In this document: positions 4,508-58,482 of the stretch, piece by piece
How positions within the stretch are numbered: position 1 is the stretch's first letter
Layout of the letters: each line of letters opens with the position of its first letter
Virus record (IMG/VR): IMGVR_UViG_3300031994_000063
Direction: 5' to 3' (one strand)
From: a virus
Lineage: Duplodnaviria > Heunggongvirae > Uroviricota > Caudoviricetes
DNA: 64,000 bases
Made by a program: the position numbers and the translations under genes
Notes under the pieces: generated by a model
Told to the model about the DNA's origin: nothing
The model's input: only the letters and a program-made list of their open reading frames with translations
Databases searched by the model: none

Positions 4508-5446
4508 ATGACAAATCTTAAATTGCTTACATATAACGTTGATGGACTTCCAGAAACATTGGATTTGAATGACCTCCCTTGGTTGTTTAAACCCTTTGTA
4601 TGGATATATAAGCTAATAAAGGGTACAACTGTCATTACGATTAATGATAACGTAAATAAAAAAGAGAATAATGATAAAATTGCCAAATATTTAAATTCCT
4701 CTGATGCTGACATCATTGCGGTTCAAGAGGATTTTAACTACCATGACAACTTAATCTCTAAGTTGGATAAGAAATATAATTGCGGTACTTATCTCGGTGG
4801 TTTTGACCTTTCCAAGATATTCTCAAACACTGAGTGGTTAACATATTTCCCACTTCCTAGATTTAAATGTGATGGTCTTAACTTGCTAACCAAAAAAGAA
4901 AAAGTTACCACAATTAATGAAACCATTATATCATGGAAAAAGAATTGTGGGTATTTCAGCAACGCCAACGATGCATTAACTCATAAGGGGTATAGGTTTT
5001 ATGAAATTATGAAAGAAAACGTGAAAATTGGTGTGTATGTGATTCATATGGATGCCAATTACTATACCGCTGATACTACAGAGGCTCCAAAAGACATCAA
5101 GGCTAGAGAAGCACAATTGAAGCAATTGGCAAAAGACGTAATAGAAAATTCAAAGGGGAATAACCCATTGACAATAATCATAGGTGATACAAACAGTTAT
5201 AATCAATATTCTTGGGATGTAGATAACCTTAAAAAGAATTTAATTGAACCAATTGAATCAACATATAACTTAACAATACAAGAGGTTGTGCCACAGAATT
5301 TTGCAGACTGTGATAGAATATATACAATAAGTAATGTGGGATTACTGAAAACCTTGAATATCAAGAGTTGTTATTTTGATAAGGAAATGGAGGGGGTTTC
5401 TGACCACTTACCATTGGTTTGCGAAATAGAATTTGAAAAAAAATAG
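4508..5446 (+). CDS. endonuclease/exonuclease/phosphatase (EEP) family protein
   Basis: 312 aa. N-terminal LTYNVDG and IAVQE. C-terminal SDHLPL, the EEP SDHxP catalytic motif. Confidence 0.65.
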   Translation: MTNLKLLTYNVDGLPETLDLNDLPWLFKPFVWIYKLIKGTTVITINDNVNKKENNDKIAKYLNSSDADIIAVQEDFNYHDNLISKLDKKYNCGTYLGGFDLSKIFSNTEWLTYFPLPRFKCDGLNLLTKKEKVTTINETIISWKKNCGYFSNANDALTHKGYRFYEIMKENVKIGVYVIHMDANYYTADTTEAPKDIKAREAQLKQLAKDVIENSKGNNPLTIIIGDTNSYNQYSWDVDNLKKNLIEPIESTYNLTIQEVVPQNFADCDRIYTISNVGLLKTLNIKSCYFDKEMEGVSDHLPLVCEIEFEKK

Positions 5447-5505
5447 TTAAAATATTTGGAGTTTTCAATTATTTTTTATATTTTTGCATCGTTAAAATAA
5501 AATAA

Positions 5506-5647
5506 GGAAACATACAGCAAACATCTATTGATAGCATTTGACTGATAATCAAAGGGTCGTGAGTTCGAGTCTCACCCTCCCCACAAAAGGGAATAAAACT
5601 TGGGGAGGTAGCTCAGTTGGTAGAGAAAAATCAAAAAAATGTTTCCG
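5506..5647 (+). ncRNA. hairpin-bounded element copy b enclosing a circularly permuted tRNA-Ile(GAT)-like unit
   Basis: Closing helix ggaaacat/atgtttcc. Inside: anticodon stem tttga/tcaaa with loop ctgataa, variable gggtc, T-arm gtgag-ttcgagt-ctcac, 3' acceptor cctcccc. After a 17-nt linker comes the 5' acceptor ggggagg plus D-arm tagctcagttggtagag. Confidence 0.5.
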
Positions 5648-5748
5648 AAAATCATAGGGTAGGAATGGAGTTTGGTAACGCAGGAAGTATCCAAGGTTCT
5701 CCACGTTAAATAAAAAAACTGCGAGGTTTATCACTTGCATCGTTTTAT

Positions 5749-5821
5749 CTAGGTGTAGTTCAGTTGGTAGAATGCGTCATTTGGGATGATGTGGTCGGTG
5801 GTTCGAGTCCACTTACCTAGA
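5749..5821 (+). tRNA. tRNA-Pro(TGG)
   Basis: Acceptor ctaggtg/tacctag. Anticodon stem cgtca/tgatg with loop tttggga. T-arm ggtgg-ttcgagt-ccact. Confidence 0.6.
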
Positions 5822-9757: not shown

Positions 9758-9966
9758 TAAGGTATATCTAATCTGAGAGTAAGTGGGCGATTAGTAGGAA
9801 AAGAATGCGGATGGCGTGAAATAATTAGTTGCGCAACACACGTTGTCTTATAGGTTCTGACTGAAAGTCGCATAGGAATGGGCAAATAGATTGGGTTGGT
9901 ATCGAGTTTGCCAAATGGAAAGAGTTATGCCACCTAAAGTAACTCTTGTGTATCAGATTAAAAAAT

Positions 9967-10621
9967 GCATCCGTAGCTCAATTGGACAGAGCAACGGCCT
10001 TCTATTTAAATTGGATGCATAGGCGAGAAATCCCTATGTAGAATCTCCCTAAAACGGTGGAAGTCCTAGTTAAAATTGAAGACCCTTAGTACTTATAAAG
10101 GAAAGTGGAATACGGTTTCAATGGCTTGCAGCAAACGTAAACTGCATCTGAAACAATAAGGAAGGATAATACCGTGCTAAATTGAATGTAGAGGCGAAAA
10201 AATCTCTAATGAGAATGAAAATACGCTTCAGAAAAGTTAATGATTAAGTATGCTACATTCATAAATGTGTAGAGAGTATATAGGAGATATGAGGGAAATA
10301 CATTGAATACCCTCACATTCTATTCAGATGTATCTGATAAGAATGCCTAAGTTGAAATTAAAGATGGTAGTCCAAACAGGTTAGAATGCGAAGATAAAAG
10401 TAGTATTACTATGGAAGTAGAACGCCAATCTGACTTGCAAGAATTTCAATATGGTAATAATGTATTCCAGACCACAATAAAATTATCAGATTCAAGAAGC
10501 AAATAACCGTGAAATTCGGTCGCGTGTGTATAATCAAAGCTCGCGGAAAAGATGATTTTAGCTATGGTAACATAGTGTGACAGGAAGCCGTAGGTTCTGG
10601 GTTCGAGTCCCAGCGGATGTA
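9967..10621 (+). tRNA. split tRNA-Arg(TCT) interrupted by a ~580-nt intervening sequence (group I-like intron candidate)
   Basis: 5' exon 9967-10003: acceptor gcatccg, D-arm tagctcaattggacagagc, anticodon 5' stem acggc, loop start cttct. 3' exon 10585-10621: aa, anticodon 3' stem gccgt, variable aggtt, T-arm ctggg-ttcgagt-cccag, 3' acceptor cggatgt. All stems complementary. Upstream exon ends in U, intron ends in G. aagatggtagtcc at 10361-10373 resembles the group I S element. Confidence 0.5.
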
Positions 10622-10627
10622 CTAATT

Positions 10628-10716
10628 GACCCTATAAAACGTAATTGGATGACCGTCACTGTCCTCTAAACAGTTCTACCGAGAGGTAGTTGGGGGTTCG
10701 AATCCCTCTAGGGCCA
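10628..10716 (+). tRNA. tRNA-Arg(TCT)-like with long variable arm
   Basis: Acceptor gacccta/tagggcc (6 of 7 bp). Anticodon stem actgt/acagt with loop cctctaa. Variable hairpin ctacc-gag-aggtag. T-arm ggggg-ttcgaat-ccctc. Shares 5' region aaaacgtaattggatgaccgtc with the 11109 gene. Confidence 0.4.
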
Positions 10717-11108: not shown

Positions 11109-11197
11109 GTAGAGGTAAAACGTAACTGGATGACCGTCCTAGTCTACGAAACTAGTGTATCGAAAGGTACTTGTGGGTTCGAATCCCACCCTCTATA
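11109..11197 (+). tRNA. tRNA-Arg(ACG)-like with long variable arm
   Basis: Acceptor gtagagg/cctctat. Anticodon stem ctagt/actag with loop ctacgaa. T-arm gtggg-ttcgaat-cccac. Confidence 0.45.
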
Positions 11198-11216
11198 CAA
11201 AATCAAATTTCCAAAT

Positions 11217-23053: not shown

Positions 23054-23500
23054 CAATTTTTTATCATGGGCTTGTAATGGATTTGACAGCAATGCATTTG
23101 GTAAGAAACAAGCAGTGGGCATACACTTGAAATAGCAAAAAAAATATAAACGGCGAGAATGTTAATTCTCCTGCTTACGAGTACGCTATTGCAGCGTAAG
23201 TAAGCCGAGAGGCTAGGCTCTTAGGAACAGAACATCCTAGCATTCTTTCTTTAGTCATCTTTTAGTTTTCCTTGTTTTCACAAAACAAGGTGGTCTCAAA
23301 GGCGGTGTCTTCGGACACTTTGGGGAAGCTTGTATAATTTCTTATGGAATGGTTGTTTGGACCGCAGTTCGACTCTGCGCAAGTCCACTTAACTACTTGA
23401 AAATCAAACGCTTAACAAAATTTAAGAAAAAACTTCTTGAAAATTTTGGAACTTTCAAAAATTTTATATATCTTTGCATTGTTAAACAAAAAGACATACA

Positions 23501-25588: not shown

Positions 25589-25713
25589 AGGGATTTAGCT
25601 TAATTGGCAAGAGTAATTTGTTGCGACTTAAGGAATAAAGCACTCTCGACTTCGGAACAGAGTGTGCCTTTAACTGTTAATAAACGATGGCGGTTCGAGT
25701 CCGTCAGTCCCTG
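25589..25713 (+). ncRNA. tRNA-like with ~50-nt insertion (contains repeat tctcgacttcggaacaga)
   Basis: Perfect acceptor agggatt/agtccct. D-arm tagcttaattggcaagag. T-arm ggcgg-ttcgagt-ccgtc. Total 125 nt. Confidence 0.35.
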
Positions 25714-25856
25714 CAATAAGTAATTCTCATGGGGTATAAACACGTTGGGTGGTGACCTGCTGGTCGGTTTCATGCATAAGAAGACCATACGAGAGGCGGT
25801 AAATATAAGACCTCTTGGAGTTCGAATCTCCAATACTCCACTTAAACAATTAACAT

Positions 25857-28054: not shown

Positions 28055-28145
28055 GGGCATATGGCAGAGTGGTTTAATGTGCTGAACTCTAAATTCAGTA
28101 TGGGCTTGAGAAAGTTCATCGTGGGTTCGAATCCTACTATGCTCG
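28055..28145 (+). tRNA. class II tRNA with anticodon CTA (putative amber suppressor)
   Basis: Acceptor gggcata/tatgctc. D-region tggcagagtggtttaatgt. Anticodon stem ctgaa/ttcag with loop ctctaaa. Long variable arm. T-arm gtggg-ttcgaat-cctac. Confidence 0.5.
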
Positions 28146-28244
28146 CTACAGCTAGTACAAAGTTAAAAATTGTTAAAGTTGAACTGATTATTTGGTTAGT
28201 TCACCTTTTTTTCGTACCTTTGCATCAATAAAACAATAAACAGC

Positions 28245-43262: not shown

Positions 43263-44450
43263 ATGAAAAAATTAACGACATATGAGTTTATTGAAAAAGC
43301 CAAGAAAGTCCACGGAGATAAATATGATTATTCAAAAGTTGAATATGTTAACAGTAGAACAAAAATTTGCATTATTTGCCCACAACACGGAGAGTTTTGG
43401 CAAACCCCAAATGCGCATTTAATGAAAGAAGGGTGTCCTAAATGTAAGGGCGAAAACGTATCAAAAGAAAATAGATGCACAACAAATGAATTTATTGAGA
43501 AAGCAAAAAAGGTTCATGGAGATAAGTATGATTACTCAAAGGTAGATTACAAAAATAATAGTACAAAGGTTTGCATTATATGCCCTATTCATGGCGAGTT
43601 TTGGCAAACACCAAACTCGCATTTAAATGGGTGCGGATGCCCAAAATGCGGTATAGAAACAATAAGGAAAAATAACATTGGGAAGAAAAGAAATGGCGGT
43701 AAAACAGCATTAAGCATTGATAGTTTTATTGAGAAAGCAAAAAAGGTTCATGGAGATAAGTATGATTACTCAAAAGTGAAATATACCAACAACAAAACCA
43801 AAGTTTGCATAGTTTGTCCCATTCATGGCGAGTTTTGGCAAACCCCAAATGCACACTTATTGGGTTTTGGGTGCTATAGATGTGGTCGTGAATCTATGTC
43901 CACAAAGCAGACAAAAAACACTGAAATTTTTATAGAAGAGGCAAAAAAGGTTCATGGGAATAAATATGATTATTCAAAAGTGAAATATACAATTGGAAAT
44001 AAAAAAGTGACCATTATATGTCCTATTCACGGTGAGTATTTTCAAAGACCATATAATCACCTACGAGGTCAAGGATGTCCTTACTGTAATGAAAGCAGCT
44101 TAGAAAAAGAAATTAATGACATTTTATGCGAACACAATATAAACTTCATAAAACAATGTAAAAAAGATACTTTTGGGTGGTTAGGTAAACAAAGTTTGGA
44201 TTTTTATTTACCAGAATATAATATTGCTATTGAATGCCAAGGGGTACAGCATTTCGGACCGTATGCTTTTTTTGGTGGCGATAAAGGATTTTATAAACAA
44301 ATTGAAAGAGATTATAAAAAATTAAAAAAATGTATTGAGCATAATATAAAAGTATTGTATTATACAAATCCATCATTTGACACATTATATGAAGTTATAA
44401 CAGATAAAGAAGAATTAATAAAAATAATAACAAATGAAAATTATAAGTAA
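43263..44450 (+). CDS. homing-endonuclease-like protein: 4 tandem Zn-binding modules plus Vsr/DUF559-like PD-(D/E)xK nuclease domain
   Basis: Four ~75-aa repeats (KVHGDKYDYSKV..ICPIHGEFWQTPN.HL.GCPKC). C-terminal LDFYLPEYNIAIECQGVQHF ... DYKKLKKCIEHNIKVLYY matches the DUF559/Vsr core. Confidence 0.55.
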   Translation: MKKLTTYEFIEKAKKVHGDKYDYSKVEYVNSRTKICIICPQHGEFWQTPNAHLMKEGCPKCKGENVSKENRCTTNEFIEKAKKVHGDKYDYSKVDYKNNSTKVCIICPIHGEFWQTPNSHLNGCGCPKCGIETIRKNNIGKKRNGGKTALSIDSFIEKAKKVHGDKYDYSKVKYTNNKTKVCIVCPIHGEFWQTPNAHLLGFGCYRCGRESMSTKQTKNTEIFIEEAKKVHGNKYDYSKVKYTIGNKKVTIICPIHGEYFQRPYNHLRGQGCPYCNESSLEKEINDILCEHNINFIKQCKKDTFGWLGKQSLDFYLPEYNIAIECQGVQHFGPYAFFGGDKGFYKQIERDYKKLKKCIEHNIKVLYYTNPSFDTLYEVITDKEELIKIITNENYK

Positions 44451-57075: not shown

Positions 57076-58482
57076 ATGAACGAACTATTATTTAAAAAAG
57101 TTGATGATAGAATCAAACACCTAGTTGACCTCATACAAGCGTCAATCAAAAACACCCATTTTGAAGGAAAGGTATATTTGGTTGGCGGTTGTGTGCGCGA
57201 TGCATTGTTAGGATTGCCCATTAAAGACATCGACATCGTTGTTGAAATGAAGAACGGGGGGATGCTGTTTGCTGGATATATGGCAATGAAACATCAATGC
57301 TATGTTCAGAATACTAATCCAGTGATATTTGAAAACTATGGAACTGCGAAGTTCCAATTATTCAAGAATGATGAATTCAAAGATATAGAGATTGAATGTG
57401 TCCAAACTAGAAAGGAACAGTACCACAAGGAAAGCAGAAACCCAGAAACTGTATTCGGAAGCCTTGAAGAAGACGCAAAGAGGCGTGACCTTACCATTAA
57501 TTCTCTATATTATAACATCAGTACAGAGAAAATACATGATTTTAACGGCTCTTTAGATGACTTGGTAAATCAAGTAATAAAGACTCCAACTGACCCAGAT
57601 GTTACATTCAATGATGACCCATTGAGAATTCTACGTGTAATTCGTTTTTCAACTAGATTCGGTTGGGATATTGAAAAAAACACTTGGTTAGGTATGGTTA
57701 AAAATGCGCACCGTATTCAAATTATTTCACAAGAAAGAATTAGTGATGAAATATCCAAGATTCTACTTTGTGAAAAACCAAGTATCGGTATTAGGAAAAT
57801 GTATTTCTGTGGCATTCTGCATAGAGTGATGCCCGATATTTATGATACAACCTACGCTTATGAGTCAAGGAATCCTATGGTTAGCACATTTGACCATACG
57901 ATGAACGTGCTAGATACTGTTCAGCCTTATTTAGAAAACAGATTAGCTGCTTTATTCCATGATGTTGGTAGAATCATAACAGAGAAGCGTAGGGATGTAA
58001 TGCCAGATAAGTTTAGTGCAGAAATTGCTGCAAGCGACTTGAAGGACATGAAATACCCTAATTACATCATTAAATCTGTTGAAACTGCTATTAAGCATCA
58101 TAGAGGTTTTGCAAGTTATGCTGATGGTATATTGCCTCCAGATAAGAAGATTAGGAAATTCATCAACTTAACTGGTGATGATTTAGGAGCAACTGTTGAC
58201 CTAATGAACGCCAATAATCTCTATTGTACTTTTGGTAAGAAGAAAAGACAAGTTCTTGATATTCTCAATAGAATTGAAGAAATGGAAGACGCTGAAAAAG
58301 CAGCAAATGTTAAACTTCCAATTTCTGGGAATGACATCATAAAAGAATTTAAAATCAAACCTTCTCCAACAATCGGCATATTGCTTGAGGCAGTCAAAGA
58401 TGCTTACTTTGAGAATCCTAATATGACTAAGGATGAAGCATTTGAGATTGTAGAGAACAAATTGAAGAGCCTAACAGTCTAA
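57076..58482 (+). CDS. cca: tRNA nucleotidyltransferase (CCA-adding enzyme) with HD domain
   Basis: YLVGGCVRDALLGLPIKDIDIVV is the class II polymerase-beta head motif. LAALFHDVGR is the HD motif. 468 aa is typical of bacterial CCA enzymes. Confidence 0.8.
   Translation: MNELLFKKVDDRIKHLVDLIQASIKNTHFEGKVYLVGGCVRDALLGLPIKDIDIVVEMKNGGMLFAGYMAMKHQCYVQNTNPVIFENYGTAKFQLFKNDEFKDIEIECVQTRKEQYHKESRNPETVFGSLEEDAKRRDLTINSLYYNISTEKIHDFNGSLDDLVNQVIKTPTDPDVTFNDDPLRILRVIRFSTRFGWDIEKNTWLGMVKNAHRIQIISQERISDEISKILLCEKPSIGIRKMYFCGILHRVMPDIYDTTYAYESRNPMVSTFDHTMNVLDTVQPYLENRLAALFHDVGRIITEKRRDVMPDKFSAEIAASDLKDMKYPNYIIKSVETAIKHHRGFASYADGILPPDKKIRKFINLTGDDLGATVDLMNANNLYCTFGKKKRQVLDILNRIEEMEDAEKAANVKLPISGNDIIKEFKIKPSPTIGILLEAVKDAYFENPNMTKDEAFEIVENKLKSLTV

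Follow-up and report, generated by a model that had tools for sequence, protein, structure and literature searches.

An enlarged group I intron of IC3 type within the anticodon loop of a tRNA-Arg(UCU) gene from a probable huge phage

In a 64,000-nucleotide (nt) stretch of viral DNA (hereafter the window; Caudoviricetes, IMG/VR record IMGVR_UViG_3300031994_000063), the gene for tRNA-Arg(UCU) is separated into two halves, at positions 9967-10003 and 10585-10621, which when joined form a 74-nt cloverleaf and between which lie 581 nt. A reading made earlier from the letters of this DNA (the original prediction) had taken the insert for a group I intron in the anticodon loop, and we reach the same conclusion by comparative evidence rather than by the main reason given at that time. 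Our verdict is that the insert is an enlarged IC3-type group I intron without an open reading frame (ORF), located between U36 and A37 of the tRNA. That positions 10004-10584 derive from a group I intron seems to us practically certain, and it is very probable, judging from the sequences, that the copy in the window is a working self-splicing intron. Among the evidence for this view are a family of related elements in different tRNA genes, an internal guide that changes together with the exon it pairs with, and a group I core supported by covariation.

The exon boundaries given in the original prediction are exact according to both ARAGORN and the cloverleaf, and its description of the tRNA also stands: seven of seven acceptor pairs are formed (one of them G.U), ACGGC/GCCGT forms the anticodon stem, and the loop reads CUUCU before the insert and AA after it. 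ARAGORN calls the joined exons tRNA-Arg(tct) of 75 bases, and in its intron mode it reports [9967,10622] in the window with a 581-nt intron after the anticodon; the split gene is missed in the window by ARAGORN in default mode and by the Rfam tRNA model. The split tRNA is far beyond chance, and no CCA is encoded in its 3' exon. The junction is ambiguous by one A and can be placed at 36/37 or 37/38. We prefer 36/37, because only there does a U (U-1) lie 5' of the intron and a G stand at its end, as the original prediction had remarked. The predicted spliced junction is GGCCUUCU joined to AAGCCGUAGG; the corresponding strings are GAGCAACGGCCTTCTAAGCCGTAGGTTCTG for the spliced form and GGCCTTCTATTTAAATTGG and GTGTGACAGGAAGCCG for the unspliced form.

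Relatives of the insert were found in IMG/VR with a degenerate pattern of a motif that is repeated within the intron (10007-10046 and 10178-10215). The first scan, with this motif, yielded 20 loci, and one with a second core motif yielded 62. The elements located number 69, and in 49 of them the conserved 3' end lies within 2.5 kb. The window intron matches its relatives by nhmmer at E = 1e-14 to 1e-74, and the relatives without an ORF are 391-620 nt long. Run in intron mode, ARAGORN finds host tRNAs of the types Arg(UCU), Leu(UAA), Ser(UGA), Tyr(GUA), Met(CAU), Lys(UUU), Thr, and others, with the element in the anticodon loop. Among GTDB genomes, the family motif occurs in two records only, both labelled rumen metagenome-assembled genomes (MAGs), RUG343 and ruminal_MAG_32, and the family elements are mostly in loci that also gave rumen-labelled MAG matches. 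Searches by other routes were less productive: blastn and tblastn against the INPHARED phages gave nothing for the window DNA or its proteins, an IMG/VR search anchored on the neighbouring 383-amino-acid (aa) gene and one with the exact junction 22-mer gave no relatives, and exact-protein look-ups led to nothing beyond the source contig and one recombinant relative.

Not all members have flanks that are recognisable as tRNA halves. The exceptions are the loci L039, L047, L064, L065, L068 (5' flank GUCAGCCCCUAACAA...), L034, L035, L050, L049 (minus strand, ~5130-5760), and L076 (3100-4500), which may sit in protein-coding or other RNA genes; in several of them a conserved ORF of ~320 aa (MYSTKTAITMSL...) follows. 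A related huge-phage contig (L012, 550-609) also has a sub-threshold match to the twister-P1 ribozyme (52.9 bits; gathering score 67.2; E = 3e-9).

For the comparison of splice sites, the 3' site was fixed as the ninth nucleotide after the invariant terminal hairpin, the 5' site was set only by the demand that the anticodon stem have 5 bp and that its 7-nt loop have U33 and, at position 37, a purine, and the guide triplet was taken as the three nucleotides located 2 nt upstream of P2. A brute-force run of ARAGORN over all junction pairs was too permissive to inform, and this strict anticodon-arm rule was used instead. In 29 of ~31 resolved cases the guide can pair with the three bases that end the exon, the junction pair being U.G. 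Exon UCU occurs with guide GGA in 10 cases (Arg 36/37, the window included), CUU with GAG in 17 (Leu, Ser, Arg, Lys, and others at 34/35), UGU with GCA in one (Tyr 35/36), and ACU with GGU in two (Leu 33/34); CAU with GUG was seen by eye in three Met(CAU) genes. The insertion site varies among 33/34, 34/35, 35/36, and 36/37, nearly always after a U and with an intron ending in G. In the 42-sequence alignment described below, P1 is 95.6% paired and two of its three pairs are changed on both sides: the U.G is found in 28 of 30 cells, and the other two pairs are doubly changed in 11 sequences each. In the window, U10011-U10012 can moreover pair with A10585-A10586 (P10).

It should be mentioned that in three identical tRNA-Thr(CGU) relatives (L037, L061, and L071) the exon appears to end in C (CUC with guide GAG) and the terminal G is displaced, which resembles the C(-1) class described by Williams for Leu.3Cg. 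Two other strings were considered as guides, GGAAG (10059-10063) and GGAAGG (10160-10165); they show no covariation with the exons and belong to J4/5 and P5. A pairing of UUGGAUGC with the acceptor strand GCAUCC, seen by cmscan, was dismissed as accidental and peculiar to this exon: acceptor stems differ, whereas the intron string stays constant.

The position of the insert in the anticodon loop also raises the question of whether it could be removed by a protein endonuclease and a ligase, as a tRNA intron of the bulge-helix-bulge type. Such introns are typically located at 37/38 and are independent of the U(-1)/G rule. The repeated A does let the junction be written at this canonical 37/38 position, and the absence of a match to the Rfam group I model RF00028 would fit as well. 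However, the site shifts from 33/34 to 36/37 with the position of the U, the guide tracks the exon, and the G at the end follows the group I rule; the transfer-messenger RNA (tmRNA) gene of the window indicates a bacterial setting, and no splicing-endonuclease gene was found among the proteins scanned, a scan that was not exhaustive. Judging from site and guide, and with no formal search for the bulge-helix-bulge motif, we regard removal by such enzymes as next to impossible, and read the shifting sites and their guides as those of a group I intron.

The secondary structure of this group I intron was derived from a family alignment with six conserved blocks, four variable regions, and one optional 56-nt module, and was tested on a trimmed version (A3; 42 sequences, 250 columns). 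In the model, which runs from P1 to P10 and contains the P3/P7 pseudoknot, 94.3% of the cells are paired versus 36-46% when the partners are slid by 1-3 columns, a comparison that favours the model over the slid controls because the helices were read off the same sequences. Double changes are seen in 29 of the 66 pairs. The covariation score is 0.238 versus 0.04-0.06 for the slid models and 0.092 for shuffles, none of 500 of which reach 0.238, counts that are not probabilities because the sequences are related. Strong covariation support was obtained for P1, P2, P6a, P7, and P9.0, whereas P3, P8, and the terminal hairpin are nearly invariant. RNAalifold independently gives P2 (with its GAAA loop), P3, P4, P5, P6a, P8, P9.0, and the terminal hairpin. 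The original prediction had named the failure to fold a P3-P7-P9 core as something that would refute it; such a core can be folded, and covariation supports it across the 42 relatives.

The individual helices (Table 1) differ in the kind of evidence that they provide. P2 is 99.6% paired with four of six stem pairs doubly changed, and RNAalifold finds its inner pairs together with the GAAA loop. P3 is also 99.6% paired, with one compensatory change (in L024) and otherwise no variation, and it is the P3 and J3/4 of RF00028 that align with it in the relative L046. The closing pair of P4 is A-U in 23 sequences and U-A in 19; P4 and P5 are both predicted by RNAalifold too. In P6a, eight of nine pairs are doubly changed. 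In P7, four pairs are doubly changed, and an invariant bulged A is flanked by G-C pairs in 41 of 42 and 40 of 41 sequences; in the window these are G10272-C10468 and G10274-C10467 around A10273, a layout like that of the P7 in the curated alignment gpI.sto, and G10274-C10467 would be the guanosine-binding pair. P8 is 99% paired and mostly invariant, and its CCUAAG/UAUGG motif is invariant in the family. In P9.0, three of five pairs are doubly changed in the family, whose consensus is ACCAC/GUGGU; the window has three standard pairs and A10476-U10576 in addition.

The extension of P6a contains a second copy of the guide-P2 module: ~40 nt at 10007-10046 recur at 10178-10215 with compensated hairpin stems, the 24-nt core is 83% identical, and the rest of the window has no further occurrence of the motif (0.01 expected). 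A three-fold tandem organisation of 170 nt was also considered; only the ~40-nt module repeats, and the other segment pairs are within the range of shuffles.

The insert itself has the G+C content of the window, and its folding energy against shuffles gives z = -2.56 for the plus strand and z = -1.67 for the minus strand. The original prediction was right that no ORF of 60 aa or more lies inside and that the intron lacks a homing-endonuclease gene; the largest ORF has 42-43 aa. The S element that it had proposed as the P7 3' strand is a different matter. The string AAGATGGTAGTCC is indeed present at 10361-10373, but within the variable extension of P8, in an unconserved stretch of the family alignment; of 76 loci, none but the source contig and its 99.5%-identical relative has the S-like pattern, and it appears in 10 of 100 shuffles of the window. 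It also has no GACUA partner upstream. We take it for a chance match, the real P7 3' strand being located at 10461-10468. The Rfam models for group II introns gave no match at E <= 10, and the intron starts with AUUUAA and not with 5' GUGYG.

The closest known introns are the IC3 introns of bacterial tRNA genes, namely those of Azoarcus tRNA-Ile, Agrobacterium-type tRNA-Arg ("Arg.5Ug"), and cyanobacterial/plastid tRNA-Leu(UAA) ("Leu.3Ug") (10.1101/2020.01.27.920355). A profile hidden Markov model made from 13 curated bacterial IC3-type sequences of 208-261 nt (gpI.sto; Williams 2020, 10.1101/2020.01.27.920355) gave scores of 30-47.5 bits for 14 relatives, whose trimmed cores it matched along almost its full length, while the best of 2000 shuffles scored 1.8 bits. 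The window intron is homologous to these profile-matching relatives at E = 1e-18 or better, and its membership rests on this homology and on the structural features common to both. In gpI.sto the layout is ...GGU-GUAGAGACU(A/G)-GA-C-[P3']-[P8]-AAGGGA(U/C)AGUCCAG-ACCAC-AAA...[GNRA hairpin]...GUGGU-A(A/U)G, with CCUAAG...UAUGG in the P8 of Azoarcus (10.1101/2020.01.27.920355). The family shares with these introns the insertion in the anticodon loop (the window at the classical Arg site 36/37, relatives at the classical Leu(UAA) site 34/35), the 3-bp P1 with its U.G wobble and the terminal G, a P7 of the form G-[A]-GAC/GU.../...GUCC, the GAAA loop of L2 with the CCUAAG...UAUGG receptor in P8, and the 3' end ...CCAG-ACCAC...[GNRA hairpin]-GUGGU-A(A/U)G. 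The P7 3' strand of the window corresponds to AAGGGAUAGUCC of known tRNA group I introns, and the relatives have the strings GUGUAGAGACUG and CAGUCCAGACCACAA in common with IC3 introns.

The differences are mainly additions. The IC3 introns are compact (~200-260 nt), as against 470-620 nt without an ORF here; the window intron, with 581 nt, is two to three times larger. Five parts are added, that is, extensions in P5, P6a, P8, and P9 and the optional 56-nt module after the P3 3' strand; in the window, the P6a extension also repeats the guide-P2 module. The subtype of the window is further diverged in J3/4-P4 and P7 (AAAACGGUG, GAGAGUAUA), and the hosts are phage tRNA arrays, not bacterial chromosomes.

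Group I introns are well known in phages, such as those of T4 (td, nrdB, and sunY), Twort, and SPO1, which often carry LAGLIDADG, GIY-YIG, or HNH endonucleases, with endonuclease-less copies common (PMC3984707). Unlike the family described here, these introns interrupt protein-coding genes and mostly belong to subgroup IA; a review of 2014 stated that every phage intron then known was in a protein-coding gene, despite the many phage tRNA genes (PMC3984707). Interrupted tRNA genes, including tRNA-Tyr(GTA), have been reported in huge gut and rumen phages, as the "enigmatic" introns of Lak megaphages and jumbo phages (10.1101/356790; PMC13037316). Those of the Lak phages were called "enigmatic" and left unclassified by Rfam (10.1101/356790), some possibly encoding another tRNA, and a jumbo-phage survey of 2026 only mentions intronic sequences in tRNAs (PMC13037316); our likening of them to the present family is by description, not by sequence. 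In the literature that we covered, which was incomplete, no paper was found that identifies group I introns in phage tRNA genes. We file the family as a new subfamily of a known kind, the IC3-type tRNA group I introns. The window also has a tRNA-Asn(GUU) gene at 25589-25714 with a 53-nt insertion in its anticodon loop, as called by ARAGORN with introns allowed; the Rfam tRNA model scores 36.2 bits across 125 nt. This insertion contains a hairpin and is too short for a group I intron; it may be of the "enigmatic" short kind of the Lak megaphages.

Several observations weigh against the reading of the insert as a group I intron. Besides the shared origin of helices and alignment mentioned above, covariation says little on P3, because P3 is almost invariant. 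RF00028 gave no match in the window at the gathering score, nor at E <= 10 on 9900-10700, and none in five relatives, so the Rfam search suggested in the original prediction came out negative, an outcome that the prediction had listed as refuting it, even though its group I reading is judged correct. For the shortest relative, L046 (~391 nt), the model gave 9.8 bits (E = 8.4, below a usable level), with P3, J3/4, P4, J4/5, P5, and P4' placed as in our model and the rest misplaced. None of the seed sequences of RF00028 is bacterial (10.1101/2020.01.27.920355), and bona fide tRNA group I introns that it does not detect have been reported (PMC13011429). The IC3 profile did not match the untrimmed window by nhmmer, because of the long insertions, and the trimmed core of the window itself scored 1.9 bits, so that its link to the known introns runs through the relatives; the low score is explained by the more diverged subtype (AAAACGGUG..., GAGAGUAUAUAGGAGAU). 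In P9.0, the window has two non-pairs and a register shift is needed. Finally, copies of the family can decay, as several relatives (L002, L017/L025, L018b, and L012a) have lost the 5' exon.

Some of these points could mean that the insert is group I-derived but no longer splices, so that the tRNA-Arg(UCU) gene would be a pseudogene and the phage would rely on the host tRNA. The window copy belongs to the subtype most divergent from known introns, P9.0 has its mismatches and the short P6 a U.U, and the relatives with a deleted 5' exon show that decay occurs. On the contrary, the window keeps all invariant core positions of the 42-sequence alignment, and P1, P2, P3, P4, P5, P6a, P7, and P8 are fully paired. 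The exons are intact, and no second tRNA-Arg(UCU) was found in the window, while AGA is the commonest Arg codon (46% of the Arg codons in 48 plus-strand ORFs). We consider loss of splicing very unlikely; the phage would probably need its tRNA-Arg(UCU) to be spliced.

The splicing pathway of such a working intron can be outlined from established group I chemistry. In the precursor, the exon UCU would pair with the guide GGA to form P1 with its U.G wobble, and the P3-P9 core would fold around the P3/P7 pseudoknot. The GAAA loop of L2 probably docks on the 11-nt receptor of P8, and the GUAA loop of L9 on the C-C:G-G pairs in P5. The first attack, after U10003, would come from a free guanosine bound in P7 at the G-C site next to the bulged A; G10584 would then occupy the same site, and the freed 3' OH of U36 would join A10585. 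The product would be the 74-nt tRNA, to be completed by CCA addition, for which the CCA-adding enzyme encoded 46 kb downstream of the split tRNA could serve, as no CCA is encoded.

Further evidence comes from a syntenic phage contig (L106, IMGVR_UViG_3300021255_003438) whose flanks are 83-84% identical to those of the window and in which the same gene is present without the intron. The two genes are identical at 70 of 74 positions, all four differences lie in the D loop, and the junction reads ...CCTTCTAAGCC...; the sequence predicted after ligation, AACGGCCTTCTAAGCCGTAGGTT, is common among viral tRNA-Arg genes that have no interruption. This empty-site allele also bears on the proposal that the insert is not an intron at all, but an independent structured RNA gene or a recombination scar between two tRNA halves. 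Some loci might be read in that way, as L002, L017/L025, and L018b keep the element and the 3' half without the 5' half, beside an intact tRNA-Arg(UCU). Yet for more than 30 elements the two flanking halves combine into complete tRNAs of different kinds, and the element has the full group I core. A structured RNA or a scar is thus extremely improbable, and the interruption is best read as an intron.

The family also shows signs of mobility. A 1160-nt intron in the tRNA-Leu(UAA) of L038 has a LAGLIDADG_2 ORF inside (79 bits), as has the element of L076 (62 bits); in the first copy of L016 an ORF ending in a NUMOD1 domain lies just upstream of the P7 3' block, and L002 has an HNH_3-like ORF beside the element (23.8 bits, just under the cut-off). 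The window copy lacks an endonuclease gene and is therefore probably either non-autonomous or maintained by vertical descent within a mobile family. A free-standing gene resembling HNH homing endonucleases lies at 43263-44450 of the same tRNA-rich window (PHROG 559, 287 bits).

Copies that consist of the intron and a 3' tRNA half without a 5' exon were seen in L002 (660-2130), L017 (minus strand, ~810-1560), L025 (10640-11380), L018 (minus strand, 775-1500), L026, and L012 (5243-5848). Upstream of them, an intact tRNA-Arg(UCU) without the intron is followed by ACATCCG and ~14 nt, and in L002 a second tRNA-Arg and an HNH ORF (842-1456) are inserted as well. In these copies, ACAUCC can pair with GGAUG at the guide site, C-G replacing U.G. 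They may be the decay products of endonuclease-driven rearrangement, or something functional.

Table 1. Features of the split tRNA-Arg(UCU) gene, its predicted intron, and the CCA-adding enzyme gene in the window.
Feature	Position	Strand	Remarks
5' exon of tRNA-Arg(UCU)	9967-10003	+	GCATCCGTAGCTCAATTGGACAGAGCAACGGCCTTCT; ARAGORN spliced and unspliced, intron-less L106 allele; acceptor 5' strand, D arm, anticodon stem 5' strand, loop CUUCU; last base U36 (= U-1)
Group I intron	10004-10584	+	581 nt; no ORF >43 aa; 35% G+C
Internal guide sequence GGA	10013-10015	+	Pairs with exon UCU 10001-10003 (P1); U10003.G10013 wobble at 5' splice site
P2 hairpin	10018-10038	+	CAUAGG/CCUAUG, bulged C10024, G10025-C10032, A10026-U10031, GAAA tetraloop 10027-10030
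P3 5' strand	10043-10048	+	AUCUCC, partner 10283-10288; followed by A-rich J3/4 10049-10053
P4 5', J4/5, P5 5'	10054-10067	+	ACGGUG 10054-10059, GAAG 10060-10063, UCCU 10064-10067
P5 peripheral extension	10068-10162	+	Sequence and length variable among relatives
P5 3', J5/4, P4 3'	10163-10175	+	AGGA 10163-10166, UAA 10167-10169, UACCGU 10170-10175
P6a helix	10183-10261	+	UGAAUGUAG 10183-10191, CUACAUUCA 10253-10261; encloses variable extension
P7 5' strand	10272-10280	+	GAGAGUAUA; G10272, bulged A10273, G10274; preceded by conserved GUGUA
P3 3' strand	10283-10288	+	GGAGAU; lies between the P7 strands, so P3/P7 form the group I pseudoknot
Optional two-hairpin module	10289-10344	+	56 nt, between P3 3' and P8; in some relatives, exactly absent in others
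P8	10346-10454	+	11-nt tetraloop-receptor motif CCUAAG 10346-10351 ... UAUGG 10450-10454
P8 stem	10352-10359, 10442-10449	+	UUGAAAUU, AAUUUCAA; variable extension 10360-10441 holds the S-like string
J8/7 and P7 3' strand	10455-10468	+	UAAUAA 10455-10460; UGUAUUCC 10461-10468
P9.0-like helix	10471-10581	+	ACCAC 10471-10475, GUGAC 10577-10581; encloses variable P9 region
Terminal hairpin	10562-10575	+	CUAUG-GUAA-CAUAG, inside P9.0-like helix
Terminal (omega) G	10584	+	G at ninth nt after terminal hairpin in nearly all full-length relatives
3' exon	10585-10621	+	AAGCCGTAGGTTCTGGGTTCGAGTCCCAGCGGATGTA; A37, A38, anticodon stem 3' strand, variable loop, T arm, acceptor 3' strand, discriminator A
CCA-adding enzyme gene	57076-58482	+	Pfam PolyA_pol (89 bits), PolyA_pol_RNAbd, HD

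The split gene belongs to an array of more than 30 tRNA genes, which lie on one strand of the window together with small ORFs. The tmRNA gene is at 23068-23390 (73.4 bits; tag GENVNSPAYEYAIAA), and a 92-nt tRNA with the anticodon CUA is at 28055-28146. TAG ends only four of 48 long ORFs, and TAG recoding is possible. JGI contig Ga0247608_10000884 carries the identical sequence. The source is probably a huge phage that infects a rumen bacterium. Immediately 3' of the split tRNA, at 10636-10707, there is an unannotated tRNA-like sequence that is 79% identical to the tRNA-Arg(ACG) at 11109-11198; it has a long variable arm and an anticodon loop CCUCUAA (C for U33, anticodon UCU), is called by neither ARAGORN nor Rfam, and is absent from the syntenic contig L106.

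We also ask whether the family could be more than a parasite. The phage could have a use for it, as its spread over the anticodon loops of many phage tRNAs, the conserved extra domains, and the duplicated guide-P2 module might indicate, although we think this unlikely. One possibility is that tRNA precursors are kept uncleavable by host anticodon nucleases; another is that regulated splicing times tRNA maturation, and hence the decoding of AGA and other codons. It is also a possibility that the 5'-exon-less copies beside intact tRNA-Arg genes are functional stand-alone ribozymes or tRNA-half RNAs and not debris.

At least one large class of tRNA inserts in huge phages is thus identified as IC3-type group I introns, with ~69 copies in at least seven tRNA types. 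Because default-mode tRNA finders and RF00028 miss these genes, the tRNA repertoires of huge phages, and the codon-usage arguments built on them, are undercounted; no tRNA other than the split one was found in the window for its commonest Arg codon. The family also offers naturally occurring versions of one ribozyme core that differ by modular additions at its periphery.

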